64,000 nt of DNA from Candidatus Woesearchaeota archaeon (GCA_018303115.1 JAGVYT010000001.1:10279-74278); one strand, 5' to 3'. Numbered from the stretch's first letter, positions 20,305 to 54,707 are shown. Made by a program: numbers and translations. Notes: a model not told the origin generated them from the sequence alone.

Positions 20305-22677
20305 ATGAAAAAGAGGTTAATGGCAGTCCTGTCAATGCTGCTGTTTTTTGCAACAGTAAAGCCGGCAATTGCCGCAATCTCAATAACCTCCCCGGAATTC
20401 GGAGTAGCACAGGAACTCACTTTTGACCTTGAACTGAATACAGACTCAAGCGTATCGTGCAGGTTCAGCACCACCTTTGCAAAACCGTTCAATGAAATGG
20501 ATGAAGTCACCACAACAGGAAACACTCTTCACACAATAGAAGGCATCACACTGCCTGCGTTTGGAACAGAATACAACTACTTCATTAACTGCTCGTCCGG
20601 AACTGAAGCGTCGGATATCAAACTAAAAGCGGACAACACAGAGCCTTCAATTCTAAATGCTGTTGCAGAGCCTGAAAAGGTTCTGCAATCCCCGCTTGAA
20701 ACAACACTCAGTGTAAAAACAGGCGAGAATACAAGCTGCAAATACGACCAAACTTTTGAAGAGTATGACAGCATGGCCAATTTTTTTATCGGAAGCGACA
20801 GCGACAAAAACAACTACAAAAACTCACACGAAAAGCCCCTTACACGCCTTAGCGACAACACTGACTACACTTTCAACGTGATGTGCCGCGACTTATCAGG
20901 AAGGAAAACGACCCTTGCAAAAATCAGTTTCAAAGTCAACACAAGCACAGAGCCGGAAATAATTGACTTTACGCCAAAAGACGGCTCTTACAAGGGTGAG
21001 GAGAACGTTGTCATTTCCATAACCACAAACAAAAACAGCATTTGCAAATACGGAAGCGAATCGCCTCCAACAAGGGAGTCGGGAAATTTCAATGTCCAGG
21101 GAACACTGCACGAAACAACACTGCAGCTGGATGAAGGAAGCCACACTTATTATTTCAAGTGCGTGTTTGAAGGCCCTAAAGAACGCACAGCACAAACAAC
21201 ATTCACGATAGACAAGACAAAACCGGCAGTTTTGCTTGTGGATGACGACCAGAAACTTGACGATGCGCCTGACGGCTACACATACTACACAAACAGGCTA
21301 AAAGCAAGGTGGGAAGCAAAAGACAACGAATCAGGCATTAAAGACTACAATTACTCAATAATCTCGGGGAGCATGACGGTAGTAAACTGGAGCACAACAA
21401 CATCTGACGAAGTAACCGCAAGAGACCTTGAGCTGCAGGACGGAAGGGAGTATGTTTTCAGGGTTAAGGCGCGAAACAACGCAGGGCTATGGAGCGAGAC
21501 AAAGGAAAGCGACGGGGTAAGGGTTGACATAAGCCTGAACGCAGAGCAGGCCTGCAAGAACGAAGTAAAAGACGGGGACGAAACAGACGTGGACTGCGGA
21601 GGAAGCTGCGCAAGAAAATGCTTACTGAAAGAAAGCTGTGAAATCACTGACGACTGCTCAAGCGGATACTGCTCAGAGGGAAAATGCGCAAAGGGAAGCT
21701 GCGATGACGGCGTAAAAAACCAGGACGAAACAGACGTGGACTGCGGAGGAAGCTGCGAGGCCTGCCTTGAAGGGGATAAGTGCAAAGAAAGCATTGACTG
21801 CGAAAGCGGCATATGCGCAGAAGATATATGCATCTCAAAAGGCCCGTGCTACAACGGGGTGCTTGACCCAAAAGAAACAGACGTGGACTGCGGAGGGGTT
21901 TGCGCTGAACTGAAATCCATAAAATGCCAGCTAGGCAAAAAATGCTCTGGTGACGAAGACTGCAGAAGCAGAACTTGCGGCATAGACGGAAAGTGCGCTG
22001 CCATGAATGACGGGGATTATGATTCAGTAGTTGACGATAAAGACAACTGCCAGCGGGCTTACAATCCAAAACAGGAAGACACTGACAAAGACGGCTTTGG
22101 AGACTCATGCGATGACGACAGCGATAACGACGGCATGGCAGATGAGTGGGAGAAGAGCTACGGCCTTAATTTCATGAGCCCTGGCGACGCACTGCTTGAC
22201 AACGACGGCGACACGCTTTCAAACCTTAAAGAATCACACCTGAAAACAAACCCGCTGATGGCTGACAGCGACAGGGACGGGTATGACGACGCAGAAGAGG
22301 TTGAAAAAGGAACAGATCCAAACGATGCAGGGTCAAAGCTAAAGAAAAGCAGGCTGCTGACATTCTTTGCATGGATGCTTTTGTTCCTTGCAATATTTGC
22401 AGCAATAGCTTACTTTTATTACAGAAAGCTTACAGGCCCTGTGCTGGAAACAAAAAGGGAACAGGAAAGAAGGGCATCCCATTACGAACCGCCAAGAGCC
22501 GTTCAAGAACCCAAGCAAGAGCGCAAATACAGGCCAGAGCCGATATACAGGCCAACACCTCCTGAAAGAAGGCACACCACAGGAGACCTTGACGAAATCA
22601 GAAGGCACCACTCAAGCCTTTCAGGGGAAGAAGTGTTTGAAAGGCTAAAAAGGCATACGAGAAGGAGGCGACACTAA
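20305..22677 (+). CDS. surface (S-layer-like) glycoprotein candidate: signal peptide, Ig-like region, three Cys-rich repeats, TSP3-like Ca-binding repeats, C-terminal TM anchor with basic tail
   Basis: N-terminal MKKRLMAVLSMLLFFATVKPAIA. Three ~45-aa repeats with ETDVDCGGxC. D-rich DxDxDG repeats. TM helix LLTFFAWMLLFLAIFAAIAYFYY then a Pro/Arg/Glu-rich cytoplasmic tail. Many N-x-S/T sequons. TTTAAATA box at 20275-20282. Confidence 0.6.
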   Translation: MKKRLMAVLSMLLFFATVKPAIAAISITSPEFGVAQELTFDLELNTDSSVSCRFSTTFAKPFNEMDEVTTTGNTLHTIEGITLPAFGTEYNYFINCSSGTEASDIKLKADNTEPSILNAVAEPEKVLQSPLETTLSVKTGENTSCKYDQTFEEYDSMANFFIGSDSDKNNYKNSHEKPLTRLSDNTDYTFNVMCRDLSGRKTTLAKISFKVNTSTEPEIIDFTPKDGSYKGEENVVISITTNKNSICKYGSESPPTRESGNFNVQGTLHETTLQLDEGSHTYYFKCVFEGPKERTAQTTFTIDKTKPAVLLVDDDQKLDDAPDGYTYYTNRLKARWEAKDNESGIKDYNYSIISGSMTVVNWSTTTSDEVTARDLELQDGREYVFRVKARNNAGLWSETKESDGVRVDISLNAEQACKNEVKDGDETDVDCGGSCARKCLLKESCEITDDCSSGYCSEGKCAKGSCDDGVKNQDETDVDCGGSCEACLEGDKCKESIDCESGICAEDICISKGPCYNGVLDPKETDVDCGGVCAELKSIKCQLGKKCSGDEDCRSRTCGIDGKCAAMNDGDYDSVVDDKDNCQRAYNPKQEDTDKDGFGDSCDDDSDNDGMADEWEKSYGLNFMSPGDALLDNDGDTLSNLKESHLKTNPLMADSDRDGYDDAEEVEKGTDPNDAGSKLKKSRLLTFFAWMLLFLAIFAAIAYFYYRKLTGPVLETKREQERRASHYEPPRAVQEPKQERKYRPEPIYRPTPPERRHTTGDLDEIRRHHSSLSGEEVFERLKRHTRRRRH

Positions 22678-25446: not shown

Positions 25447-25555
25447 AACCAGCAGGGTTTCAGCAGGGTATAAATATGTTTTTCTTTCCGATAAAGTATC
25501 TACGAACCTACAAACTCGAAAGCATATTAAATATCGTTTTTTACCCTAATCAACG

Positions 25556-25586
25556 CCATTAAGCGAATATTTATCTCGCTTAATGG
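25556..25586. repeat. perfect 11-bp palindromic hairpin CCATTAAGCGA-N9-TCGCTTAATGG at left edge of AT-rich island
   Basis: Read directly. Confidence 0.7.
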
Positions 25587-25656
25587 GTGTTATGCTCAAT
25601 TCAGAATTCAGGTTTGAAGCGTTACATTTATATCTTTAAAGATTTTCAAGTTAAAT

Positions 25657-26043
25657 ATGAAACCAGAAGATTACTTCAGAAATGGCAAAGTGTATGTTTG
25701 GAAAGAAACTTTTGCCGTTGTGAAATCAAAGAAAACATATCTCAATGCTTTTGCTAATATCATTGATAAGAATGAAACAACTGTAATTATTGACCAATCC
25801 AAATTCAATGAGAAAGACGCAATTGAAATTGAAAGAGATTGGAAGATATTAACTTTTGATATGGTTTTACCATTTGGATTGGTAGGATTTATGGCAAAAG
25901 TTTCTCAAGCCCTCGCAGATGAAAAAATATCTATTTTTGCCATTTCTGCCTATTCAACAGACCATATTCTTGTGAAAGAAAAAGACGTAACAAAAGCAAT
26001 AAAGAAACTTGAAAATCTTGGTTGCATCGTTGAAAAGAAGTAA
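25657..26043 (+). CDS. ACT-domain-like small protein (function unknown)
   Basis: 128 aa, weak resemblance to ACT/RAM-type ligand-binding folds. Located in the AT-rich island. Confidence 0.3.
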   Translation: MKPEDYFRNGKVYVWKETFAVVKSKKTYLNAFANIIDKNETTVIIDQSKFNEKDAIEIERDWKILTFDMVLPFGLVGFMAKVSQALADEKISIFAISAYSTDHILVKEKDVTKAIKKLENLGCIVEKK

Positions 26044-26060
26044 CGCCCGAATTCTGAACT

Positions 26061-26098
26061 CGAAATTTTTGCCTTCGGCATCGTTGCACTAAATTTTA
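26061..26098 (+). repeat. island direct repeat A, copy 1 (CGAAATTTTTGCCTTCGGCATCGTTGCACTAAATTTTA)
   Basis: 38-nt exact match with 27730-27767. Contains UUCG-loop hairpin TGCC-TTCG-GCA. Confidence 0.8.
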
Positions 26099-26122
26099 TT
26101 CCTAACGGAGAGCATAACACGC

Positions 26123-26767
26123 ATGCGATACGTTAAGTTCAATAATTTCAGGGGCTTTACGATAATGGGGCGGTTTTCAATTCGAAATATTTTAACACCT
26201 ATTCAATATTTTAAAATTATGGATAGTAAGAATAAGCCAAAATACGAATTTACTAATAAAATTACCGGTTCTTCTCTTCCCACTGATACTTTTCTAGAAA
26301 AATTAAGAGAATTCCTAACCAATAATAGCTTTTCTTGTTCTCAGACAAAAGAAAAGACTGGAGAAGCAAAAACCACAGGAGTCGGAGTAACAATGGAAGG
26401 AGACTTGGGTGGAGGTATTGCTCATTCAGATATTATCACAAATAAATGGAATCCGTTTAATATTAAATGCGGTGGAAAAACATGTTCTTTCTTAGGTAGA
26501 TTTAAAGGAAATATTAAACTGACAGAAATGGCTAAATATAGTAAAAAGAAAAGAGATATACATTATGAATTAAAAGATTACAATTTAACAGGCAATATTG
26601 ATTTTTCACCATACGGTTTTTGGATGTTTATTTTATTCTGCGTAGGTATATACCTCAGTTTTAAATTTTCAACTGGTTTTTGGATTGGGAAAAAGAGTTT
26701 ATGGAAAGATGGATACCTTGGGCTTTTGGAGTTGCTTCTATACTATTCGCTTTTGTTGGTGGAATGA
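26123..26767 (+). CDS. hypothetical protein with C-terminal TM segment
   Basis: AT-rich ORF. C-terminal hydrophobic stretch. 3' end overlaps the next ORF by 88 nt in another frame (possible frameshift). Confidence 0.3.
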   Translation: MRYVKFNNFRGFTIMGRFSIRNILTPIQYFKIMDSKNKPKYEFTNKITGSSLPTDTFLEKLREFLTNNSFSCSQTKEKTGEAKTTGVGVTMEGDLGGGIAHSDIITNKWNPFNIKCGGKTCSFLGRFKGNIKLTEMAKYSKKKRDIHYELKDYNLTGNIDFSPYGFWMFILFCVGIYLSFKFSTGFWIGKKSLWKDGYLGLLELLLYYSLLLVE

Positions 26768-26868
26768 CTATAAGAGATATAGTTGGTCTGATAAAGGATA
26801 AGCATGAAAAATTATTAAAAGATGCTGTAAAAGAGATAGACAAAGAAACCAAACGTTCAACAAAATAA
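26680..26868 (+). CDS. small membrane protein (single TM)
   Basis: 62 aa with WIPWAFGVASILFAFVGG helix and a charged tail. May be the displaced C-terminus of the upstream ORF. Confidence 0.3.
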   Translation: MDWEKEFMERWIPWAFGVASILFAFVGGMTIRDIVGLIKDKHEKLLKDAVKEIDKETKRSTK

Positions 26869-26881
26869 TAAAACGACTGCT

Positions 26882-26906
26882 CACTAACTTTACAGTCCTT
26901 CGGACA
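26882..26906 (+). repeat. island repeat C, copy 1 (CACTAACTTTACAGTCCTTCGGACA; GTCC-TTCG-GAC tetraloop hairpin)
   Basis: Shares CAGTCCTTCGGACA with 27622-27635 and CTAACTTTACAG with 29783-29794. Confidence 0.65.
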
Positions 26907-26915
26907 TTTACAAAA

Positions 26916-27314
26916 TCAATCCATCTTAACCAATTCTTCCGTAGAATAAACCCGAATTGTATTTTGCTTTTCTTTCAAATCCCTATCATTGCTCCACAAA
27001 TTGCATCTTAATTTTAGGGCAAGAGCCAAATATGGGACATCTTTTGGGTCTGGAGAAATCTTTTCGGCTTTTTCGATGAAAGGCTCAATTTCTTTTTTTG
27101 GCATTAGCATAACATTTCGTTCAAACAAATCAAAAAGGTCGTTAAAATTTTCCTCATTCCTTTTGGTCTTTCCTTCCAGATAGTCCTTGTATTTTCTGAA
27201 TTCCTCAAAAATAAATTCAGGTGCATAGAGTTTATGCTTAAACAGAATGTCTGATGTTCCGCTTTCTTTCAGCAAAGCTGCAAAAAGAACATTTGAATCT
27301 ATCACTAAATCCAT
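26916..27314 (-). CDS. vapC: PIN-domain ribonuclease toxin (VapC-like)
   Basis: N-terminal VIDSNVLFAAL with conserved Asp, later acidic residues (PDPKDVPYLALAL, SNDRD). Confidence 0.7.
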   Translation of the reverse strand: MDLVIDSNVLFAALLKESGTSDILFKHKLYAPEFIFEEFRKYKDYLEGKTKRNEENFNDLFDLFERNVMLMPKKEIEPFIEKAEKISPDPKDVPYLALALKLRCNLWSNDRDLKEKQNTIRVYSTEELVKMD

Positions 27315-27316
27315 GA

Positions 27317-27556
27317 TTAAGCCTTTTTGTATCTTTTAGCTAGATTTTTGTTTAGTTCTCTTCCTAATCTTAATGCATCTTCCTCAGTCAGAGTACTATC
27401 GGACTTGAATTTTTTCAAAAATTCCAAATCCTTTATTCTTTGCATAAATGCTTGCCTGGCTATCTCAGACCAATTCATCTCTGGGAATGTTTCCATTTTA
27501 TGTTTCAGTTCTGATGGAACTGCTAAAGTCATAGTTGTCATGTTCTTTACCTCCAA
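27317..27556 (-). CDS. vapB: VapB-like antitoxin
   Basis: 79-aa ORF immediately upstream of the PIN gene on the same strand (2-nt gap). Confidence 0.5.
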   Translation of the reverse strand: MEVKNMTTMTLAVPSELKHKMETFPEMNWSEIARQAFMQRIKDLEFLKKFKSDSTLTEEDALRLGRELNKNLAKRYKKA

Positions 27557-27613
27557 TTATGTGTAAATATGTATAATATGTTCAAATATATAAAACTTAC
27601 TATTTCTGCCCCT

Positions 27614-27635
27614 CAACTTTTCAGTCCTTCGGACA
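27614..27635 (+). repeat. island repeat C, copy 2 (CAACTTTTCAGTCCTTCGGACA); followed by a third UUCG hairpin TCTGC-TTCG-GCAGA at ~27643-27656
   Basis: Read directly. Confidence 0.65.
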
Positions 27636-27729
27636 GCTACTCTGCTTCGCAGAAATTCATGCAATTCGGTGACAATCTTTAAAAAATAATAAAAACGGCT
27701 GTCCCGCCGTCCTAAAGTTCGCTTTAACC

Positions 27730-27767
27730 CGAAATTTTTGCCTTCGGCATCGTTGCACTAAATTTTA
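27730..27767 (+). repeat. island direct repeat A, copy 2
   Basis: Exact 38-nt repeat of 26061-26098. Confidence 0.8.
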
Positions 27768-27844
27768 GTCCCTGCAAGTATTCGGGAGAGATTAACAGCG
27801 ATCGCATACGTTCAACGCAATAAAATTTAAGTTTCCTAGAAAAC

Positions 27845-27879
27845 GGGAATTCTCAGAGGTCATTCGCAAACTTCAGTTA
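27845..27879 (+). repeat. island direct repeat B, copy 1 (GGGAATTCTCAGAGGTCATTCGCAAACTTCAGTTA)
   Basis: 35-nt exact match with 29616-29650. Confidence 0.8.
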
Positions 27880-28115
27880 AGTCCGATTTTTGCGGACAAC
27901 TCAAAACCCTCTTCAGTAAGCCTTGTTTTCAGGTCAGAGCATTACTTTCTTGCCCTTCCGCTTTCTGTCAATGCTTCTACAATGTCTACTACTGAGAACC
28001 ACCATCCATCATTAAACCAAGTTCTTCTGATTTTTTTGCCTTAAAATACTACTAGAGCATTATTTTGGTTAGTCATTTTATTACTTCAACTGCATTATTT
28101 CCATTCATAGCATTA

Positions 28116-28991
28116 TCAATCTGCCTCAGAAAATATTTGGCTAATGATTTCATTTTCTTTTTGCGTAAAAGGTATATCTGGATTGTCATGGAAATAAAGA
28201 GAACGATTAGAACGATTATTAATAAGGTGGGTGTATCCAACTATTAGGTTCACTCTTCTATAAACTTCTTTTTGCTCAAAGAATCCTTTTTCCCTTCTAT
28301 TCCCATCTATGTATCCAATTTGCCGGCCATCTTTTTCAATTTGGCAATAACCCTTTATAGCATTTCGAAGGCTAGACACATCAGCAAATAATGTATTTAT
28401 AATAAGAATATTCTTAAATCCTTTTCTCAATTGCCGTGTTTTTCCTTTTAATAAATCATACAGTCTATAACAATCACTATTTTGTGTTACCTCATTGACT
28501 ACAAAATGCCCGCTTAATTTATTTCCCGATTTAAATTCTTCTAACATTGCAGTAATCTTATCTGTTACATGTTTATCTTCATTTAATACAGCTACCTCTA
28601 CTATAATATCCTCTTGGTCTAGTTTTATCAAGAAATCAGGGTTTTTATCAAAACCATCTATTTTTGGCTGATAACAAACATAAGGAATATTAATCTTCTT
28701 TAAATAAGCCCAAACATCAATTTCTGATATTATTCCGTATACTTGCGCAACTCCTCCTTTAAGATATTCAAGTATATGTTTCTTATGCGGATTAATTTCA
28801 TCTGCACCCAAATCATTTAAGTTACTTTCTAAATGCTGTAACTTTGGTTCTCTGTGTTTTATCAACCAGATTAAAGCTGATGGTTTATTTTTTCCTGATT
28901 CTTCATTAATCCAATTATCAGTGATAAGACTTTTTAGTAAGGGTAAACTATTTACATTAATATTAATTGTTTGTTTATCAAATTGGTTCAT
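28116..28991 (-). CDS. hypothetical protein, co-transcribed downstream of the RelE/AbrB pair
   Basis: 291 aa, AT-rich, no recognisable motif. ATGA-type 4-nt overlap with the RelE gene. Confidence 0.4.
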   Translation of the reverse strand: MNQFDKQTININVNSLPLLKSLITDNWINEESGKNKPSALIWLIKHREPKLQHLESNLNDLGADEINPHKKHILEYLKGGVAQVYGIISEIDVWAYLKKINIPYVCYQPKIDGFDKNPDFLIKLDQEDIIVEVAVLNEDKHVTDKITAMLEEFKSGNKLSGHFVVNEVTQNSDCYRLYDLLKGKTRQLRKGFKNILIINTLFADVSSLRNAIKGYCQIEKDGRQIGYIDGNRREKGFFEQKEVYRRVNLIVGYTHLINNRSNRSLYFHDNPDIPFTQKENEIISQIFSEAD

Positions 28992-29233
28992 TTGTAAACA
29001 TCCTTTCGGTGATCAAAACAATTTATTATGATACTATCTTTTTCTAATCTGTAAATTATCCTATAAGGGGGAATTCTTATACTTCGATGCCCTTTTAGCT
29101 GATACTGCAATGGTTTTCCTGATTCTGGAAGTTCGCCCAGTTTCCTAATATTTTTAATGAGTTTCAATCTCGTAGGCTTATCTTTAATCTTTCTGAATTC
29201 TTTCTTAAATTCTTCAGAAAATATTATCTGCAT
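28988..29233 (-). CDS. RelE/ParE-family toxin
   Basis: YRIIYRLEKDSIIINCFDHRKDVY matches the RelE/ParE C-terminal signature. Confidence 0.75.
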   Translation of the reverse strand: MQIIFSEEFKKEFRKIKDKPTRLKLIKNIRKLGELPESGKPLQYQLKGHRSIRIPPYRIIYRLEKDSIIINCFDHRKDVYK

Positions 29234-29234
29234 T

Positions 29235-29519
29235 TTAAGCCATCAACAAATCGTCTATATCTTCATCACTCATTTTAGTATCTATTTTAACTACTCTGCC
29301 TTTCTTAATTTGTTCTTCGCTTCTCTTAATTTTATCTATTAATACCATATCTTCTCTTAAAGCTTCTTTTTTAACTTGCTTTAACATAATATTCCCACCT
29401 TCATTAAATACAATAAACTTAGTTGATGGCTTTATGCCTGCATCTTTCCTTATTTCAGATGGTATTACAATCTGCCCATTCTGAGATATCCTAGTCATAG
29501 CAACTTCCATTTTTATCAC
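29235..29519 (-). CDS. AbrB/MazE/SpoVT-type antitoxin
   Basis: ISQNGQIVIPSEIRK swapped-hairpin motif. 1-nt spacing to the RelE gene. Confidence 0.65.
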   Translation of the reverse strand: MIKMEVAMTRISQNGQIVIPSEIRKDAGIKPSTKFIVFNEGGNIMLKQVKKEALREDMVLIDKIKRSEEQIKKGRVVKIDTKMSDEDIDDLLMA

Positions 29520-29615
29520 CTACAATATATTTTAATATTAAAACATATTTTATATATAAACCTTTTGGTTTTTGGGCTCCAAATTCTATTGTTCCTGGGC
29601 AACCTCCGCTCACGA

Positions 29616-29650
29616 GGGAATTCTCAGAGGTCATTCGCAAACTTCAGTTA
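29616..29650 (+). repeat. island direct repeat B, copy 2
   Basis: Exact 35-nt repeat of 27845-27879. Confidence 0.8.
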
Positions 29651-29651
29651 T

Positions 29652-29757
29652 ATCAAGTTGAGTAAATAGAGGAACTTGATTGCATCCATTGTTGCTACCG
29701 GACTCAACTTGATTATTAGGAAGTTGACCATGAAGTTCCAATATTTCGTCAACTTCC
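29652..29757. repeat. cluster of inverted repeats built on a CAACTTGA-like core (ATCAAGTTGAG/CTCAACTTGAT 29652-62/29703-13; GGAAGTTGAC/GTCAACTTCC 29719-28/29748-57)
   Basis: Read directly. Lies at right edge of AT-rich island, upstream of the GT2 gene at 29843. Confidence 0.6.
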
Positions 29758-29842
29758 CATAAGTCCGATGTTATACCAGTCGCTAACTTTACAGCTCACG
29801 TATTCCAAAAATTTAAATACTCTCCCAAGACACCGCTGCAAG

Positions 29843-45959: not shown

Positions 45960-47031
45960 AATCATGCTTGGCGGCAGCCTCGGTTAATGCATCTGCATCA
46001 TGAGCAGCCACTACTATTCTGCCTTTCTTTGACAAGATAAGGCTTGCCTGATAGAAAAATTCCGGATAAAGCCGTTTTATTTTCGATGCGTCAGTGCTTT
46101 TTGACAACAAAGGCGGATAGGAAACAATATCGTCAACAGTGCCGTGTTCAAACTTCAGCTCAAGCCACTCCAGGTCAACCCTTGCAAAATTTATCACCTT
46201 GTTTATGCCGGCTATCTTGGCGTTTTTTTCTGATGAACGCACATTGGCGATGGAGGGGCTGTAGTTGAAAATCTTCAGCTTTTCAGTTTCAATTTTTTTA
46301 TCAACTGCTGCAAAAAAACTTTTGAAATTTATTGGCGAAAAAGGCTTTAGATTCAGGAACGAAAAGGAGTCTTTGCGATAGTAGTTTACAGGAAATCCTG
46401 AGCCAAACAAGGCTGCCTCAATCGCTATCGCTCCAGAACGGCAAAAAGGGTCCAAAAGGGCTGTGCTGCGCTTGAAGCCAGCCATCCTAAGCATGGCGTA
46501 AGCCACCGTGGCTTTCAAGTCAGATGAATGGCCGAAAATCCTGTAATCGCGCTTGCTTAAATCAAATCCTGCAACATCAATACCAAAAAAGCCCTTGTTG
46601 TCATTTATGCAGCAGAAAAATCGCAGCGATGGCGATTTGAAGTTAACATTGTCATTGCCGCTGATTTCAGAAATCAGGTTATTCGCAGCAATAGAAAAAT
46701 CGTGACTGTTAAAATCATGCTTTCCACGGCGCTCGCACTCAACAACAAAATCCTTTTCAGCCCAATCGCTGATTTTGAAATTCCGTAGTTTTAGTTTTAG
46801 ATTTTTAATAGCGGCAACAAGAGACGTTGCTGCTTCAAATTCACAAATTGAATAACAAAGCCTTGACAGTGACTGTGAACGGTAAGCCAACACACAGAAG
46901 TCCTTGAAATCCTTAATATCAAAAGTTACTACGCTGCTACTGCCACGAATATTTGCAGCAATAACGAGTTCTTTAATTTCAGCAGCGGCTATATCCTCAA
47001 TACCCGCGTTAGTAAGTGCAAATGCGTTCAT
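45877..47031 (-). CDS. THUMP-domain tRNA (guanine-N2) methyltransferase-like (Trm14/TrmN family)
   Basis: N-terminal ferredoxin-like/THUMP region, then class I MTase core (LLDPFCRSGAIAIEAA, ..SYPP.. DPPY-type motif). Confidence 0.55.
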   Translation of the reverse strand: MNAFALTNAGIEDIAAAEIKELVIAANIRGSSSVVTFDIKDFKDFCVLAYRSQSLSRLCYSICEFEAATSLVAAIKNLKLKLRNFKISDWAEKDFVVECERRGKHDFNSHDFSIAANNLISEISGNDNVNFKSPSLRFFCCINDNKGFFGIDVAGFDLSKRDYRIFGHSSDLKATVAYAMLRMAGFKRSTALLDPFCRSGAIAIEAALFGSGFPVNYYRKDSFSFLNLKPFSPINFKSFFAAVDKKIETEKLKIFNYSPSIANVRSSEKNAKIAGINKVINFARVDLEWLELKFEHGTVDDIVSYPPLLSKSTDASKIKRLYPEFFYQASLILSKKGRIVVAAHDADALTEAAAKHDFKLSSKMQFSMGEEKMIALVFVGSWGK

Positions 47032-47066
47032 AAAAAACGGAAAATAAGTTTAGTTTAAAAGGTTAA

Positions 47067-47588
47067 TCATGCGGATTTAACAGCAAGGCATGCATACGAG
47101 TAATCGGTAAGCCTTTCAATTTTACCTTTGAAACCTGTTTTTCCTAACAGGGCTTCAAGTTTTTGCGGAGAGCTCCTGCCGCACTTCACATCAACGCCTT
47201 CATCGCTGCGTACATGAACATAATCATCAGTTGTTTCAACAACATGGGGAAAACCCACACTAGCGCAGTGCTCTAATTGAACATCAAGGGCATTCTCAGA
47301 CCACGTAGTAACAATAAGCCTTCCATCAGGAACTAATAATTGGTTTACACTCCCTAGAACCTCTAATTGCGACTCCCCAGATGGTTCATTTAAGGAGTTA
47401 ATGGTGTTATAGGAAATAATCACTAAATCATACCAATTATAAGGCAAAGGAGGCCTACGAGCATCGCCAAGGACTAAAGCAGTTTTGTCTCTATATTTAG
47501 CAGTGTTTCTGGCTGCTTCCTCAAATTGTACACGGCTGTAATCTAAACCAGTGAAATGAGCTGCATGCGCAGCTAAAACCTTCAGCAA
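47067..47588 (-). pseudogene. class I methyltransferase fragment lacking SAM-binding motif I (5'-truncated or unconventional TTG start)
   Basis: Begins (TTG) at ...LKVLAAHAAHFTGLDYS, which is the post-motif-I region. An in-frame stop lies immediately upstream. Motifs II/III present (LVLGD, LLVPDGRLIV). Confidence 0.4.
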
Positions 47589-47629
47589 AAGTCATCAGCT
47601 ATCACTTAAAGAGATTAAAAAAAGAAAGG

Positions 47630-47941
47630 GTGATTCTGGGTTACCGTCCAAGGATTAACAACGAGCTGCTGGGTTTTAGTTCTTACAAAGTTTTTTTCTA
47701 TCTTAAAAATGTTTCAAAAGAAAGCTTTGTAAAGTTTAAAAATTATTTGAAGTCGCTGCCTGAAACAATATACATACTAGAGGAAGTCGGCATTACAGAT
47801 GTTGACATAGAGCTTATGCTGCCTACCGGAGAAAGTGTTTTTCAGTTTGTAGATAAAATTCGCTTTGATTTCCCAACGCTAATAAGGGATTACGAAGCAT
47901 TCTCGATAAAAAACTTAAAAGTAGAACTCCTGCCGTTTTAA
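47630..47941 (+). CDS. stand-alone Lrp/AsnC C-terminal (RAM) ligand-binding domain protein
   Basis: 103 aa matching the regulatory beta-alpha-beta-beta-alpha-beta part of Lrp/AsnC without the HTH. Confidence 0.45.
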   Translation: MILGYRPRINNELLGFSSYKVFFYLKNVSKESFVKFKNYLKSLPETIYILEEVGITDVDIELMLPTGESVFQFVDKIRFDFPTLIRDYEAFSIKNLKVELLPF

Positions 47942-48027
47942 GAAGCGGTATCACTTACTCTTTCGTCATCCCGCAACACAGAGCCAACCGCAAACTTTAA
48001 ATATCAGTTGATAACTATAGTTATCAA

Positions 48028-48555
48028 ATGATAACTGAAGATAACAATTTAAGGGCGGTAAGGCTTTTTTTTGAAAGCCCTGAAAAGAAGTTCCACATAA
48101 GGCAGATAGCCAGGCTCACGGGCATGTCCAGCACAGGCGTAATTAAAATAGTAAAGAGGCTAAAAAAATGCGGTTTGTTGAAATCAAAGAAGGAACGGAT
48201 GGTTGAAGAGGTTGAAGCAGACTTTGAAGGAAGGTTTCTGCAGCTGAAAAGGGCTTACAACCTTCTTTCTGTTTACGATTGCGGCTTAGTGAAGATGCTG
48301 AGGGATTTCTATGAAGAACCGCAGTCAATCGTGCTTTTCGGCAGCTATGGGGAAGGGACAGACACCTCAAAAAGCGATATAGATATAGCGGTTGTAACAA
48401 AAAAAAATGAACTTCCAAACGTGGATAAATTTGAAAAAAAACTCCGCAGAAAGATAAAGCTCATGGCCGTATCTCTGGAAAAGTCCACGCCGGAATTTAA
48501 AAATTCTCTCAGCAACGGGATTGTCCTGAGCGGATATTTGGAAGCGATAAAATGA
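48028..48555 (+). CDS. wHTH + minimal nucleotidyltransferase (MNT) protein, antitoxin-like
   Basis: N-terminal HTH (IARLTGMSSTGVIKIVKRL), then LFGSYGEGTDTSKSDIDIAV (GS...DxD of minimal nucleotidyltransferases). Confidence 0.65.
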   Translation: MITEDNNLRAVRLFFESPEKKFHIRQIARLTGMSSTGVIKIVKRLKKCGLLKSKKERMVEEVEADFEGRFLQLKRAYNLLSVYDCGLVKMLRDFYEEPQSIVLFGSYGEGTDTSKSDIDIAVVTKKNELPNVDKFEKKLRRKIKLMAVSLEKSTPEFKNSLSNGIVLSGYLEAIK

Positions 48556-48998
48556 CGCGCGAGTTTGAGTATTATCTGGAAAAGAACTTGGCAAAGAGGT
48601 CTGTTATAAATCGGTCTTTAGCAAAATCGCTTATGGAAAAAGCAGAACTCAGGCTCAAGCTATTGAACGAGGACAAGATAACAGATGAGATGGCTTCAAT
48701 AATGTTTGAGGAAGCGTATGAAGCTGTAAGGGAAGCCTCACAGTCACTAATGCAGGTTAAAGGATTTAAGCCATATTCGCATGATGCATTGATAGCGTTT
48801 TTAATAAAAGAAAAACTGATGCCCGAGCAGTTTATAAAATCATTTGACAGGTATAGGATATTAAGAAACAAATCGGTTTACGAAGCACAAAGGGTATCAA
48901 TAGAAACTTGTAAAGAAGCGCTTCAATTTGCAAAAAGGCGTATTCCTGAAGTTAAAAACAAGCTTTTTTCGCTATTAAACTCCAATATTATGCAGTAG
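48552..48998 (+). CDS. HEPN-domain protein, partner of the MNT gene
   Basis: ATGA overlap with the MNT gene. Helical 148-aa protein with R-x(4-6)-[HY]-like RNKSVYE segment. Confidence 0.5.
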
Positions 48999-51435
48999 AA
49001 TCAGTGTTGTTGTTCTCCTTCGCTATCTTCGCAACCGCAACAACCTCATCATTTTCTCCAAGGCGCATTATCCTTGCTCCCTGGGTGTTCCTTCCGATAA
49101 CTGAAATGTCCTTGGAGGGAACTCTAATCATGATGCCGTGCCTGCTCATGAACATAATCCCGTCATCATCAGAAACAGAAGCGATGCCAACCACCTTGCC
49201 GTTTCTCTCAGAAGTTTGTATGTTTATTACGCCATAGCCGCCACGGTTAATCAAGCGGTAGTCAGATACCGGAGTTCGCTTGCCATATCCCATTCTGCAG
49301 ACTGTAAGAAGGCTTTTTTGCTCTTCTGCAACAACCATGCCGATTACAGCATCCCCTCTCAGCTTAATGCCTCTAACCCCCTTTGAAGAACGGCCTGTAA
49401 TCCGGATGTCCGATTCCTTAAACCTCACTGCATAACCGTTCTGAGTTGCAAGAATAATCTGCTTTGTGCCGTCAGTCAGCTTAACGCTAACCAATTCATC
49501 ACCCTCGTCAAGCGTGATTGCAATTATACCACCTTTTCTTGGGTTTGAGTAAGCGTCCAGCCTTGTCTTCTTTATAGTGCCGTTCTTTGTTGCCATGACA
49601 ACATAGCCCTTGAAGTCTGCTACAGGAACAAATGCCGTAACCTGCTCGCCCTCACTAAGGTTGAGAAGGTTCACGATAGCCTTGCCTCTAGCATTGCGCC
49701 CTGCGTCAGGAATCTCATAAACCTTCAGCCAGTGCACCACACCGTGGTTTGTGAAGAAAAGAATGAAGGAATGCGTGTTTGCAACAAAAAGGTGCTCTAC
49801 AAAATCGTCCTCCCTAGTTGAAGCAGCAATAACCCCCTTTCCGCCGCGGTGCTGCTGCCTGTATTCAGTTAGCAAAGTGCGCTTGGCGTAGCCGGAATGG
49901 CTGACTGTTATGGCAACCTCCTCAGGCTTTATAAGGTCCTCATGCACGAAATCATCCTCCTTAACATCCTCTATCTGAGTCCTTCTTCCATCGCCATACT
50001 TATCCTTAATCTCCCTTAGCTCTGATTTTATTATGTCCAGTATCTTCTGGGGCGAGCCAAGAATGTCCCTGAGCTCTGCTATTTGGGATTTAAGCTGCGA
50101 GTCCTCATCGCGCAAAGCCAGCTGCTCAAGTGAGGAAAGCTTCTGCAGCCTCATCTCAAGAACTGCAACAGACTGCTTCTCGCTAAGAGTGAATTTTTGC
50201 ATCAGCGAAGTTTTGGCAGCAGCAGCATCCCTGGATTCTTTTATTGCCTTTACAACAGCGTCTATGTTCTTCAACGCAGCAACAAGGCCCTCAACTATGT
50301 GGAGCCTTTCCAAAGCACGGTTAAGCTCAAACTCGCATCTTTTTGTAACAACGCTTTTTCGGTGCCCTATAAACCCCAAGAGAAGCCTGTCCAGGCTTAC
50401 GGTCATTGGCATTCCGTCGACCAGACAAATCAGCGCAACAGAGATTGTTAATTCGAGCCGGGAATGGCTGAAGAGCTGATTCAAAACAACAGCTGAATTG
50501 GAGTTTTTCTTCAGCTCTATAACTATGCGCATGCCCTCCCTGTCGCTCTCATCCCTTATGTCTGAAATATCGCGCACTGTCCTATTCTTGACAAGCTCTG
50601 CAATCTCCTCAAGAAGAAGGGACTTGTTAACCTGGTAGGGAATCTCTGAAACTATTATGCACTCATGGTCCTTTTTCACCTCTACGAAAGTGCGCCCCCT
50701 TACCTTTAGCAGGCCCCTGCCTGTGCTGTATGCAGCCATTATTCCGGACCTGCCCCTGATTACGCCTCCTGTAGGAAAATCAGGGCCTGGCATAACATTC
50801 ATAAGCTCGTTAATCGGGGCATCAGGCCTGTCAATCTTCATAATCACAGCATCAGTAGCTTCAGAAAGGTTGTGCGGCGGTATGTTTGTAGCCATGCCAA
50901 CAGCTATGCCAGAGCTGCCGTTAACTAACAGGTTTGGGAACTTTGAGGGCAGGACAACCGGCTCTGTAACTGAGTTGTCAAAGTTAGGAACAAAGTCTAC
51001 TGTCTTTTTGTCAATATCCAAAAGAAGCTCTTCTGAAAGCGCTCTAAGGCGGGCTTCTGTATAGCGAAACGCAGCTGCCCTATCCCCATCAATAGAACCC
51101 CAATTGCCCTGCCCGTCAACCAAAGGGTATCTCAAAGAGAAGTCCTGCGCCATCCTCACAAGCGCATCGTAAATGGCAGCATCCCCGTGCGGATGATAGC
51201 GAGCCATGGCGTTGCCAATAATAGTAGCGGACTTGCGGAACGCTTTGCTATGCAGCAATCCAAGCCTGTACATGGTATACAAAACGCGCCTTTGGACAGG
51301 CTTCAGGCCATCCCTTATGTCAGGCAAGGCTCTGGAAACCAGCACAGACATAGCGTAATCTAGGTAAGAAACCTTCATCTCGTCTTCAATTTCACGATGC
51401 AAAACCCTCTGGTTCTGTTCTGTTTGAGGCGCCAT
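48988..51435 (-). CDS. gyrA: DNA gyrase subunit A
   Basis: [34 protein letters not shown], active-site AAFRYTE, six C-terminal beta-pinwheel repeats. Start at MAPQTEQN. Confidence 0.9.
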
Positions 51436-52965: not shown

Positions 52966-53364
52966 TTAATGGCGTTTAGTTTTAATTTTTTGCTTATCAG
53001 AACGATTAACTCTGGAGCGCTTTGCATCCTTTAGAATTTTTCTTAGTTTCTGCTTAAGCCCCGGCAAGTCTTTCTTGATAACATCCCAAGTCAAATCAAG
53101 GTCTATCCCAAAATACATGTGGATTAATATATCCCTAAAACCTGCAATTTGGCGCCAGCTTATTTCTGGATACTTATCCCGAAAATTTTTGGGAATGTTT
53201 TTAGCCGCCTCTCCAATAATTTCCAAATTTCTAATAACAGCATCCTGAATTATTTTTGATTTAAGAAACCCCTGCCTCGAAATTCCCTCAGTATATTTTT
53301 CTGCTTTCTGAATGCTGTCCAAAATGTGCCCTACGAAAACAGCAGGGTCTTTAGGAAGATTCAT
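52966..53364 (-). CDS. hepT: HEPN/DUF86 toxin (HepT-like)
   Basis: RQIAGFRDILIHMYFGIDLD contains R-x4-H. 4-nt overlap with upstream MNT gene. Confidence 0.7.
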   Translation of the reverse strand: MNLPKDPAVFVGHILDSIQKAEKYTEGISRQGFLKSKIIQDAVIRNLEIIGEAAKNIPKNFRDKYPEISWRQIAGFRDILIHMYFGIDLDLTWDVIKKDLPGLKQKLRKILKDAKRSRVNRSDKQKIKTKRH

Positions 53365-53654
53365 AATAGCCTAACCTCTTCCTTAAGCACCCTTTTTCTA
53401 AGCAGCGGATGGACGGACTTATAGGTTAAAACGTCAACTTCCCTCCTTAAACTGTCCTCCAGCTCCTGCTTCAGTCTTATAAGGTCCAGCAAAGTCTTTC
53501 TTCCCTTAAACCTGATTAAAACATCAACATCACTGCCTTTTTTAGCAGAGCCTCTCGCGTGAGAGCCGAACAATCCCGCTTTTGCCACTTCATGCCTGTT
53601 TAACACCGAAATGATAGCACTCTTCAAGTCGGATTTTTTAATCTGCTTTCCCAT
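53361..53654 (-). CDS. mntA: minimal nucleotidyltransferase antitoxin (MntA-like)
   Basis: GLFGSHARGSAKKGSDVDVLI (GS-x9-DxD). Confidence 0.7.
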   Translation of the reverse strand: MGKQIKKSDLKSAIISVLNRHEVAKAGLFGSHARGSAKKGSDVDVLIRFKGRKTLLDLIRLKQELEDSLRREVDVLTYKSVHPLLRKRVLKEEVRLL

Positions 53655-53816
53655 TCAAATCACCTGCCAACAATAATGCAACAGCCTATTTAAAAGTTTG
53701 CCTGAAAATTTTAGAGCAACGCAGGACAGCAACAGTTTTCTAACTACTAGCAAGTACTAAAACAAAAAGTTTATAAATGCCTTCTTTTTTCTTTTACAAA
53801 CAGGTACGGCTACAAA

Positions 53817-54707
53817 ATGGCAACAATACTTGACAATCCCAGAACAAAAGCAGGGCTTAACGACCCGTCAACCTCCTATTATGAAGGGTTTCTGGGAAGC
53901 CACAATTGGCAGATGCCCTTGCTTATCGATGCAGGCATGACACCGATTTCTTTCAAAGGCGTGTGGCAAAGGCGCTTGGAGGTTATCAGAAGGCTTAAGG
54001 AAGCCTTGGAAATGCATGAGCCAGAAGAACGAATAAAGGCGTGGGAAAGCCTGCAAACTGAATGGGTTGACACACACATTGGTTCTGGAGATGGCGCTGT
54101 AAGGCACAGCAGCGGCAGCGCAAAGATAGCGCCTGATGCGAATTACTTGAGACTTCTTACGCCTGAAACTCCGCTTAGAAACGGCAGTGTGCGATTAAGT
54201 GGCGGGGACTTCATAAGGTTGTATGGAGAACACTTCACCCCAGGACAAGTTGAAAGATACTTTGAGAAGTCATTAACAAGAGAAGAAGTCAAAGAAAGCC
54301 CGGTATGGCGCGCCTTAATGAGGGGAGACCAAGCACTGCTTAACCACGTTGCTGACACTGCTTTCGCACAAGCCGAAGAAAGGTTCCCGTACAGACCTAG
54401 ATATGACAGAGATGAAGGCAAGATGATGAGAGTTTACATTCAGAATGCTCCAAGCGAAGGCGCAGCCGGGCGCCTGTGGACTGCGAGCAGTCTTGTCAAC
54501 AACGCCTACGCCGGTAGCAGACGCTTAGACGATGTTGGGTGGTTGGTCGCGGTAGCGTCTGCGCCGAAGGCGCGTGTCGAAACAGGGGTTACGCTTGAGC
54601 AAAGAGTGAAGGCAGTTCTTGCAGCAACCAAGGGGCAAATTGGAATAGAAAACCTAGCCGGATACGAAATGCAAGTGCGTGACGCCCTACGGATTCTTGA
54701 GCAGTAA
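53817..54707 (+). CDS. hypothetical protein (compositionally GC-richer than surroundings)
   Basis: 296-aa ORF, Arg/Ala/Gly-rich, no motif recognised. Confidence 0.4.
   Translation: MATILDNPRTKAGLNDPSTSYYEGFLGSHNWQMPLLIDAGMTPISFKGVWQRRLEVIRRLKEALEMHEPEERIKAWESLQTEWVDTHIGSGDGAVRHSSGSAKIAPDANYLRLLTPETPLRNGSVRLSGGDFIRLYGEHFTPGQVERYFEKSLTREEVKESPVWRALMRGDQALLNHVADTAFAQAEERFPYRPRYDRDEGKMMRVYIQNAPSEGAAGRLWTASSLVNNAYAGSRRLDDVGWLVAVASAPKARVETGVTLEQRVKAVLAATKGQIGIENLAGYEMQVRDALRILEQ

Follow-up and report, generated by a model that had tools for sequence, protein, structure and literature searches.

Integrons are defined by a specialized integrase, IntI, whose IntI-specific domain contacts extrahelical bases of the folded attC site, and the origin of these systems from Xer-like recombinases is assumed, not documented. 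The Vibrio cholerae repeats (VCRs) are long, similar attC sites at the level of a single species, held in a sedentary array that is stabilized by toxin–antitoxin (TA) genes; the integrase acting on them, IntIA, contains the IntI domain. Host Xer enzymes serve to move accessory DNA in two kinds of system. The integrative mobile elements exploiting Xer (IMEXs) are entire phages or islands, each located at one dif site; an example is CTX phage, in which the single strand folds into a dif-like site. The pdif modules of Acinetobacter, which often contain TA genes, have their sites in alternating, inverted orientation. Archaeal integrons with canonical compact attCs and IntIs carrying the extra domain are known, and from the Nanoarchaeota only integrase-less clusters, with zero IntIs in the Nanoarchaeota genomes surveyed (PMC9668308); the dif of Thermococcales is one 28-bp site, not adjacent to xerA (PMC2958812). 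In the searchable literature we found no description of a Xer-linked array system of the kind presented here. We analysed a 64,000-nt stretch from a Candidatus Woesearchaeota archaeon (GCA_018303115.1, JAGVYT010000001.1:10279-74278), referred to throughout as the window, in which an AT-rich segment lies between an epimerase gene and a GT2 (family 2 glycosyltransferase) gene of a glycan island. It is likely, in our view, that this segment represents a cassette array of integron-like build from which the recombinase gene has been lost, and that the sites which delimit its cassettes belong to a family which, as judged by sequence comparison, is widespread, previously undescribed and found beside an ordinary Xer-type recombinase in DPANN archaea and a bacterium of the candidate phyla radiation (CPR).

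As proposed in an initial annotation of the window, the DNA between the two genes is AT-rich, with a G+C content (GC) per kb of 0.30–0.37 across 25–30 kb, compared with approx. 0.46 in the rest of the window. A Candidatus Woesearchaeota metagenome-assembled genome (MAG; L029 among our handles for contigs and genomes) is the nearest representative, and its flanking proteins are 65–86% identical with those of the window and are kept in the same order. In this genome a spacer of approx. 75 bp separates the divergent GT2 and epimerase genes and their junction, aatataaataggttttctttcc joined directly to aaaaatttaaatag, is uninterrupted, i.e. it is an empty site. The segment has thus been inserted, in this lineage specifically, between two promoters that diverge (Table 1); its edges lie exactly between the TATA-like box of the epimerase gene and that of the GT2 gene, with TTCC at each junction. 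The flanking epimerase gene is also carried by many metagenome contigs at >99% identity with the window.

Presence/absence polymorphism of single cassettes, which the initial annotation had suggested looking for among close relatives, was found for the first unit of the insert, which holds an ACT-domain gene. In a contig with an identical epimerase gene (L010) this unit, 25590–26132, is missing, and the junction lies inside a 12-bp box, GTTAnnnTCAAT, which in the window occurs both to the left of the unit (GTTATGCTCAAT, at 25589) and to its right (GTTAAGTTCAAT, at 26132). Two other contigs (L004 and L009) stop at the base of this junction, and a third (L006) has a scaffold N-gap there. In the nomenclature of attC sites (R″-L″-loop-L′-R′), the unit also shows the start and end expected of a cassette: it begins, after a G, with TTATGCTC, the perfect complement of which, GAGCATAAC, sits 13 nt ahead of the next GTTA, so that the start, GTT-ATGCT, is perfectly complementary over 9 nt to the unit's own R″ box, AGCAT-AAC (26110–26118).

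The initial annotation had described three families of short direct repeats, A, B and C, in the order A, C, C-A-B, B-C. We confirmed both the order and the positions, i.e. 26057–26102 and 27726–27771 for repeat A (46 nt, 96% identical), 27845–27879 and 29616–29650 for repeat B (35 nt, 100% identical), and 26877–26911 and 27606–27640 for repeat C (35 nt, 80% identical), with a 15-nt third copy of C at 29780–29794, and found no other copies of the three in the 64-kb window. The division into independent families did not survive, as A, B and C are modules of one structured boundary element, and the C-A-B block is thus a run of such modules. Repeat C is a GTCC-TTC-GGAC hairpin, of which the array contigs hold 25 copies, all on the array strand (25:0), located 45–50 nt past an R′ box or 51–59 (sometimes 102) nt ahead of the next 5′ module; the CTGCTTCGCAG hairpin has a similar strand bias in arrays (12:0). 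A search of the window with profiles of the element returned only the two A copies, A1 and A2, and a site at 29750–29776, all on the + strand and within the insert. Both A1 and A2 are short forms, in which R″ and R′ are approx. 13–20 nt apart, and such forms also occur on five other contigs (L123, L222, L225, L174 and L126); A2 is 97% identical over 67 nt with the element on an unrelated contig (L111). The 11-bp perfect palindrome (25556–25566/25576–25586), which the initial annotation took as a marker of the left edge, is a minimal version of the same element and is real as a structure (hairpin fold z = −3.96 compared with shuffled sequence), but is more than a marker, namely the primary recombination site itself.

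The 19-nt core of repeat A matched more than 120 metagenome contigs, a count that is a lower bound, with groundwater, lake and marine samples among the matches listed, whereas scans of viral contigs for A, B and C gave no match and no Rfam family matched the element. This 19-mer, GCCTTCGGCATCGTTGCAC, is enclosed in a stem (26057–26106 and 27727–27788 in the window; columns 4–66 of our element alignment, alignment A2). Although its presence in every retrieved contig follows from the construction of the search, its immediate flanks (columns 13–39) are invariant in 40/40 aligned copies. Within the 64-kb window the repeats are confined to the segment, as would be so if it were a one-off patchwork of horizontally acquired genes in which the repeats arose by duplication on the spot, without a recombination system of its own; we find this barely credible, however, given that the modules occur in at least >120 unrelated contigs from many environments, with a conserved architecture and covariation.

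Across these contigs the element is approx. 160–250 nt long and ends in CGAT-GTT(A/C), with nnnn(C/A)AAT after the boundary, and the sequences downstream are unrelated between contigs. It consists, in order, of a stem around the 19-mer, a second hairpin, GAnnnnnAAC-AG, a 10–11-nt L″, variable hairpins, a complementary L′ and the terminal CGAT-GTT(A/C). All of its helices were recovered by RNAalifold, and 30 of the 45 predicted pairs have compensatory changes; 93.9% of cells were paired, compared with 78.5% after shuffling (0/500 shuffles reached the observed value) and 38–52% when the partners were slid. The L″/L′ stem has 10–11 bp, with eight of ten pairs covarying, and the R boxes pair as AACA/TGTT in the consensus fold. 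These boxes, nnnTAAC and GTTAnnn, are typically one mismatch away from the canonical attC consensus (R″ RYYYAAC, R′ GTTRRRY). On the basis of its consensus fold and R boxes the element has the architecture of an attC site, R″-L″-loop-L′-R′, of which the window copies are short or partial forms. Individually the window sites are less telling: when folded as single sequences none but the left palindrome and one hairpin at the right edge did better than shuffled sequence, a search of the window for AAC-N(8-45)-GTT hairpins found the two A tails and nothing else, and the R′ motif is not enriched window-wide (17 matches, 11 expected), its local clustering alone being informative.

The element occurs in arrays. 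Thirty-one contigs have at least two sites, which with one exception lie on the same strand at a spacing of 0.45–3 kb, and the 38 units between consecutive R′ boxes measure 393–2146 bp and mostly contain a single open reading frame (ORF), with varied functions. The 5 nt that follow the upstream GTT are the perfect complement of the 5 nt preceding AAC in the R″ box of the next site in 16/32 pairs, compared with 3.2 in shuffled data (P < 5e-5), whereas complementarity to the R″ of the same site is not enriched (5/39, compared with 3.2 shuffled, P = 0.18). Such complementarity of a unit's start to its own R″ is the signature of integron cassettes, as predicted by circular intermediates that exchange at or near G/TT (the slash marking the proposed crossover, which the data resolve only to the 12-bp box). 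The repeats are not the generic terminators of ordinary operon ends that the initial annotation had named as a possible refutation; elsewhere they form same-strand cassette arrays that obey the complementarity rule. A related idea sees the repeat as non-coding DNA that moves by itself (a miniature inverted-repeat transposable element or a small RNA gene), or else as a terminator or insulator acting in one orientation, which has become dispersed over intergenic regions among genes that do not move. It draws on the structured, strongly conserved and strand-specific 5′ module and TTC(G) hairpins, for which no recombination role has been assigned, and it would make the ACT deletion, whose endpoints share a 12-bp imperfect direct repeat, an accident of microhomology. 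We regard it as quite improbable: it predicts neither complementarity across 0.4–7 kb (16/32 compared with 3.2) nor a matching box beside a recombinase gene (see below), contigs of independent samples and organisms break exactly after GTTA, and the element is absent from Rfam. Subterminal hairpins and TTAC-like targets had also raised the idea of an IS200/IS605-type element or a TnpB guide RNA, which was dropped because no such genes recur beside the element and in view of the complementarity rule.

Two of the array contigs hold other features. In L234 (2690–9900) a complete type I restriction–modification (R-M) system, with HsdM, HsdS, HsdR and small ORFs, makes up a single 7-kb cassette, which extends from the xerA-proximal site, GTT-CTATT, to the next element, AATAG-AAC. 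In the Woesearchaeota contig L111 a 182-aa ORF (540–1088), approx. 1.4 kb from the array, looks by eye like an IS200-like Y1 transposase.

Clustering of the ORFs that neighbour the sites singled out a tyrosine recombinase of about 265–295 aa with Phage_int_SAM_4 and Phage_integrase domains. It scored 239 against the NCBIfam XerA equivalog NF040815 (cutoff 220) and 214 bits against the integron integrase model TIGR02249 (cutoff 265). With Pyrococcus abyssi XerA (4a8e) it aligned end to end in a single stretch (162 bits), whereas the alignment with Vibrio IntI4 (2a3v) split into two pieces, with 21 residues facing 64, and the IntI-specific domain is therefore lacking. By these alignments the array-adjacent enzyme is a XerA-type recombinase without that domain; members of the family, with 70–99% identity, are annotated in Woesearchaeota and Nanoarchaeia. 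The enzyme of the homologous arrays is thus assigned to the XerA family and not to the integron integrases, and the window holds neither. The absence of an integrase from the window, stated in the initial annotation, was confirmed by family searches, made on the glycan-island genes and on mid-size ORFs that lacked an assignment, and by tblastn with a Xer protein.

The recombinase gene has a fixed relationship to the arrays. In 9/10 contigs it is encoded on the opposite strand, upstream of the first site, and its other side is free of sites. Four Woesearchaeota xerA lineages were the starting point of the reciprocal test, and three of them (L231/L232, L234 and L236) had copies of the element upstream on the opposite strand. 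All four lineages have a conserved hairpin site 70–130 nt upstream of xerA that ends in GTT(A/C)nnnnCAAT. Such a primary site, comparable with attI, was identified in L231, L234, L236, L239 and L111, and in a CPR locus 81 nt upstream of the gene, and the complementarity rule is obeyed, starting at the primary site, in L231, L234 (with the 7-kb R-M cassette as its first unit), L236 and L111. A dif site has 11-bp inverted arms around a 6-bp spacer and belongs to the replication terminus; the primary site can be read as an arm, a 6-bp spacer and an arm TTAnnnnCAAT, the arms matching at only 6–7/11 positions by inspection, and such sites are multi-copy. Contig ends are frequent at the arrays or a short way upstream of them: eight contigs (L232, L235–L239, L241 and L242) stop 80–1500 bp upstream of xerA, the ends of L235, L241 and L242 coinciding exactly with the primary-site GTT, from which we conclude that short-read MAGs systematically under-assemble these arrays.

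The CPR locus (L243, which is the same as L182, together with L241 and L242) contains a second recombinase lineage with homologues in Patescibacteria, and TsaE and DUF4012 are among its neighbours. It has the same layout and the same 19-mer, and its primary box, GTTATGCTCAAT, is identical with that of the window, so that a Woesearchaeota archaeon and a CPR bacterium share a 12-mer R box and a 19-mer core without a mismatch. In addition, its first cassette matches the complementarity rule perfectly and two of its contigs begin exactly after TAAC. These findings imply that the site family, and perhaps cassettes, are common to both domains. Whether there is an integron analogue common to DPANN archaea and CPR bacteria, run by a resident Xer-type recombinase rather than IntI, with its own compound attC family and a cross-domain cassette pool, is in our judgement evenly balanced.

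A different view of the same sites would be that of an ordinary cluster of attC sites lacking integron-integrases (CALIN), in which canonical attCs are served by a true IntI elsewhere in the genome or in other organisms and the nearness of xerA is incidental. The logic of the R boxes is indeed that of canonical attCs (nnnTAAC-A … GTTAnnn), published archaeal attCs included, and CALINs have already been reported in Nanoarchaeota, among them Woesearchaeales and Pacearchaeales. However, the primary site stands 70–130 nt from xerA in all Woesearchaeota lineages examined and near it in the CPR, with a first cassette that obeys the rule; the adjacent enzyme is without the IntI insertion; no other recombinase family recurs among the neighbours over 639 kb of array-bearing contigs; and the published survey counted no IntI in its Nanoarchaeota genomes. 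We therefore regard this explanation as unlikely, and retain the reading of the segment as an integron-like array without its own recombinase gene. This cassette-array reading, as first offered in the initial annotation, gained support from all the checks suggested with it, i.e. polymorphism between strains, the state of the site in relatives, the behaviour of the repeats elsewhere, attC-like folding, which is backed by covariation, and the presence of a recombinase nearby, a tyrosine recombinase adjoining such arrays in other genomes.

The left edge of the insert shows what remains of the recombinase locus. The reverse complement of window positions 25470–25612 aligns with the regions upstream of xerA over the primary site and the TATA/promoter box, and the match ends at the insert boundary, approx. 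40 nt beyond the TATA box, at roughly the expected start codon of xerA. The left edge is therefore a copy of the platform minus the recombinase gene, with a promoter remnant, a primary site and then cassettes.

We propose the following mechanism for such arrays. Each unit starts with TT(A/C)nnnn(C/A)AAT, contains one or a few genes, and ends in a structured boundary element made up of optional hairpins with a GC stem and TTC(G) loop (C), a highly conserved 5′ module (A) and an attC-like hairpin, of which B is the 3′ part. The parts of this hairpin are R″ (nnnnnAAC-A), L″, variable hairpins, L′ and CGAT-G, and a folded single strand may be the substrate. A unit would be excised as a circle when two R′ boxes recombine at G/TT or directly beside it; in the circle the flanks of R″ and R′ then pair perfectly, and recombination between the circle and the primary site would insert it. 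The catalyst would be the XerA-type tyrosine recombinase, the gene for which is divergent in complete loci and adjoins the primary site. For the array in the window, where only the promoter remnant and primary site are left, activity would have to come in trans from a xerA gene elsewhere in the genome. By analogy with chromosomal integrons, the TA pairs probably stabilize the array.

Several observations weigh against this interpretation. There is no recombinase gene in the window. The 5′ module is more conserved than the recombination boxes, even though the neighbouring recombinases are only approx. 40% identical, and it has no role in the model. Within the window both the polymorphism and the complementarity rule were demonstrated for the ACT unit only; the crossover can be resolved only to the 12-bp box, and a contig with GTTAAACTCAAT at the start of the ACT unit (L003) means that exchange or conversion beyond G/TT is possible. 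The R″ box of A2 (AGATT-AAC) matches neither upstream flank, and the other boundaries in the window rest on degenerate boxes. The ORFs of the 38 units, unlike those of classical integrons, are mixed in orientation, 30 lying on the array strand compared with 24 on the opposite strand, so that the promoterless, co-oriented cassette ORF is not the rule here; in the window two units are co-oriented with the array and the two TA units are inverted. The TTCC microhomology at both junctions is the only clue to how the array arrived between the GT2 and epimerase genes. Finally, XerA probably doubles as the housekeeping dimer resolvase, and the arrays could lie close to it because they sit at a dif-like site and not through a partnership dedicated to them.

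Table 1 Features of the inserted segment, in window coordinates (G/TT marks the proposed crossover)
Feature	Position	Strand	Description
Whole inserted cassette array	25490–29806	+	4317 bp, GC 0.328 compared with 0.462; L029 empty site aligned to both window flanks
xerA upstream/promoter remnant	25490–25547	−	TATA-like box 25522–25536; alignment A3 with the upstream regions of five Woesearchaeota xerA genes
Primary (attI-like) site S0	25548–25600	+	AATCAAC-g-CCATTAAGCGA-loop-TCGCTTAATGG-gt-GTTATGCTCAAT; crossover predicted at or near G/TT, between 25589 and 25590
Cassette 1 (543 bp)	25590–26132	+	ACT-domain gene 25657–26043 (ACT_7, Pfam); present/absent between strains
Element copy A1, short form	26057–26143	+	P1 stem with invariant 19-mer 26071–26089, P2 hairpin (nhmmer 5′ module, E = 2.6e-12); R″ GAGCATAAC 26110–26118, 13-nt loop, R′ box GTTAAGTTCAAT 26132–26143
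Putative cassette 2	26133–26855	+	182-aa ORF 26219–26767; ends in degenerate site 26832–26866, R′ box GTTCAACAAAAT
Unit 3, vapBC	26856–27579	−	vapC 26916–27314 (PIN_2), vapB 27317–27541 (RHH_12, VapB NCBIfam match)
ORF-less boundary-module stretch	27606–27821	+	C hairpin 27624–27634, CTGCTTCGCAG hairpin 27641–27653, then element copy A2
Element copy A2	27727–27821	+	19-mer 27740–27758, R″ GAGATTAAC 27788–27796, R′ box GTTCAACGCAAT 27810–27821; nhmmer E = 2.4e-16
Repeat B1	27845–27897	+	3′ part of element (P4 + L′), R′ degenerate, GATTTTT for GATGTTA; aligned in alignment A2
abrB-relE-291 unit	27880–29650	−	abrB/mazE 29235–29519, relE/parE 28988–29233, 291-aa ORF 28116–28991; Pfam and NCBIfam
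Terminal ORF-less unit	29651–29776	+	Nested hairpins 29652–29663/29702–29713 and 29719–29728/29748–29757
Repeat C3	29780–29794	+	Truncated C-type module past the last R′ box, beside the right junction of the insert

The units of the window are listed in Table 1. The earlier gene calls (ACT, VapBC and AbrB-RelE) were borne out by matches to ACT_7, PIN_2, a VapB-like ribbon–helix–helix (RHH) family, RelE/ParE and AbrB/MazE. Three TA modules had been claimed, and only two pairs qualify as an adjacent small antitoxin and toxin from recognized families, i.e. PIN_2 with RHH/VapB and RelE/StbE with AbrB. The 291-aa ORF is translationally coupled to relE/parE, and neither it nor the 182-aa ORF of cassette 2 had a family match in Pfam, NCBIfam or PADLOC. 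The right boundary of cassette 2 would lie at a degenerate site that is 73% similar to the A2 tail and matches the R′ motif. The vapBC unit is flanked by the C-type hairpin modules at 26877–26911 and 27606–27640, and we tentatively place its right boundary at a weak R′-like sequence, GTTCAAATATAT, within 27576–27591. Identical 35-nt B repeats bound the abrB-relE-291 unit, the identity stopping at GTTA with divergence after it. At the right edge the cluster of inverted repeats reported earlier was found again as the nested hairpins of the terminal unit, of which the right-edge hairpin folds with z = −2.4 compared with shuffled sequence; the unit ends in an L′ + R′ box, CATAAGTCCGATGTTATAC, at 29758–29776, with G/TT between 29770 and 29771 (nhmmer 3′ module, E = 4e-4).

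Population contigs, in which the 182-aa ORF is called too, have a cluster of strain-level single-nucleotide polymorphisms inside this ORF (26397–26617) that is much denser than in the rest of the segment, and the ORF may encode a hypervariable small membrane or secreted protein. Contigs of two different samples (L007/L015 and L026) stop at the same base, 29741, inside the hairpin of the last site, which is suggestive of another structural polymorphism, on the right-hand side of the insert; we looked for an alternative structure at these contig ends and found none, and look-ups with the GT2 and methyltransferase proteins returned only contigs of the same arrangement. A contig break at 27794 was also considered as structural variation and dropped, as repeat A is the simpler explanation and L003 and L109 overlap by just 56 nt. 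Elsewhere in the window there are two more AT-rich patches (46000–49000 and 53000–54000, GC 0.39–0.42), holding a nucleotidyltransferase gene (48028–48555), an overlapping 148-aa ORF (48552–48998) and a 97-aa nucleotidyltransferase-like ORF (53361–53654); these have a TA-like look and contain no copies of the boundary element. In the glycan island, three 147-bp tandem repeats (21552–21904; 86% and 69% identity, 59-nt core) lie within a 790-aa ORF (20305–22677).

The wider interest of these loci is that a full cassette logic here adjoins a plain XerA-type enzyme that is without the IntI-specific domain. If the arrays are indeed run by a Xer-type enzyme, the system could stand between Xer/dif resolution and integrons, as an intermediate in evolution or as a parallel that arose independently, and would explain why integron surveys see only integrase-less attC clusters in these lineages. 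It may also be a route of gene flow in ultra-small episymbionts with reduced genomes. Its components are small, i.e. a recombinase of approx. 270 aa, a primary site of approx. 50 nt and folded sites of 30–250 nt, and are hence directly testable.

In comparison with known systems, the likeness is closest to integrons and CALINs, the CALINs of Nanoarchaeota being compared via their published description. Common to all are arrays of short cassettes with same-strand folded R″-L″-loop-L′-R′ sites and nnnTAAC/GTTAnnn R boxes, a unit start that complements its own R″, a primary site beside a divergent tyrosine recombinase gene, TA and R-M cargo, and the existence of arrays with no adjacent recombinase gene, as in the window. 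Unlike in integrons, the enzyme here is of the XerA type and lacks the IntI-specific domain of approx. 40 aa, the sites have an extra conserved 5′ module and accessory hairpins, R′ extends to a conserved CAAT to give the 11-bp arm TTAnnnnCAAT, some sites are very short (approx. 30 nt from R″ to R′) and ORF orientation is mixed. The VCRs are likewise a family of long, highly similar sites in a TA-bearing array, whereas the present element is common to very different hosts, even across domains. With IMEXs and pdif modules the arrays share TA cargo and would share Xer-type enzymes moving accessory DNA and the hairpin substrate of CTX, but their sites are in direct orientation, their units are integron-sized and they follow the start and end rule of attC. 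Xer/dif itself has the same enzyme family, and the crossover proposed here would fall at the border of an 11-bp arm, as it does at dif; unlike dif, these sites are many per genome, have long folded structures and form gene-carrying arrays that adjoin xerA.

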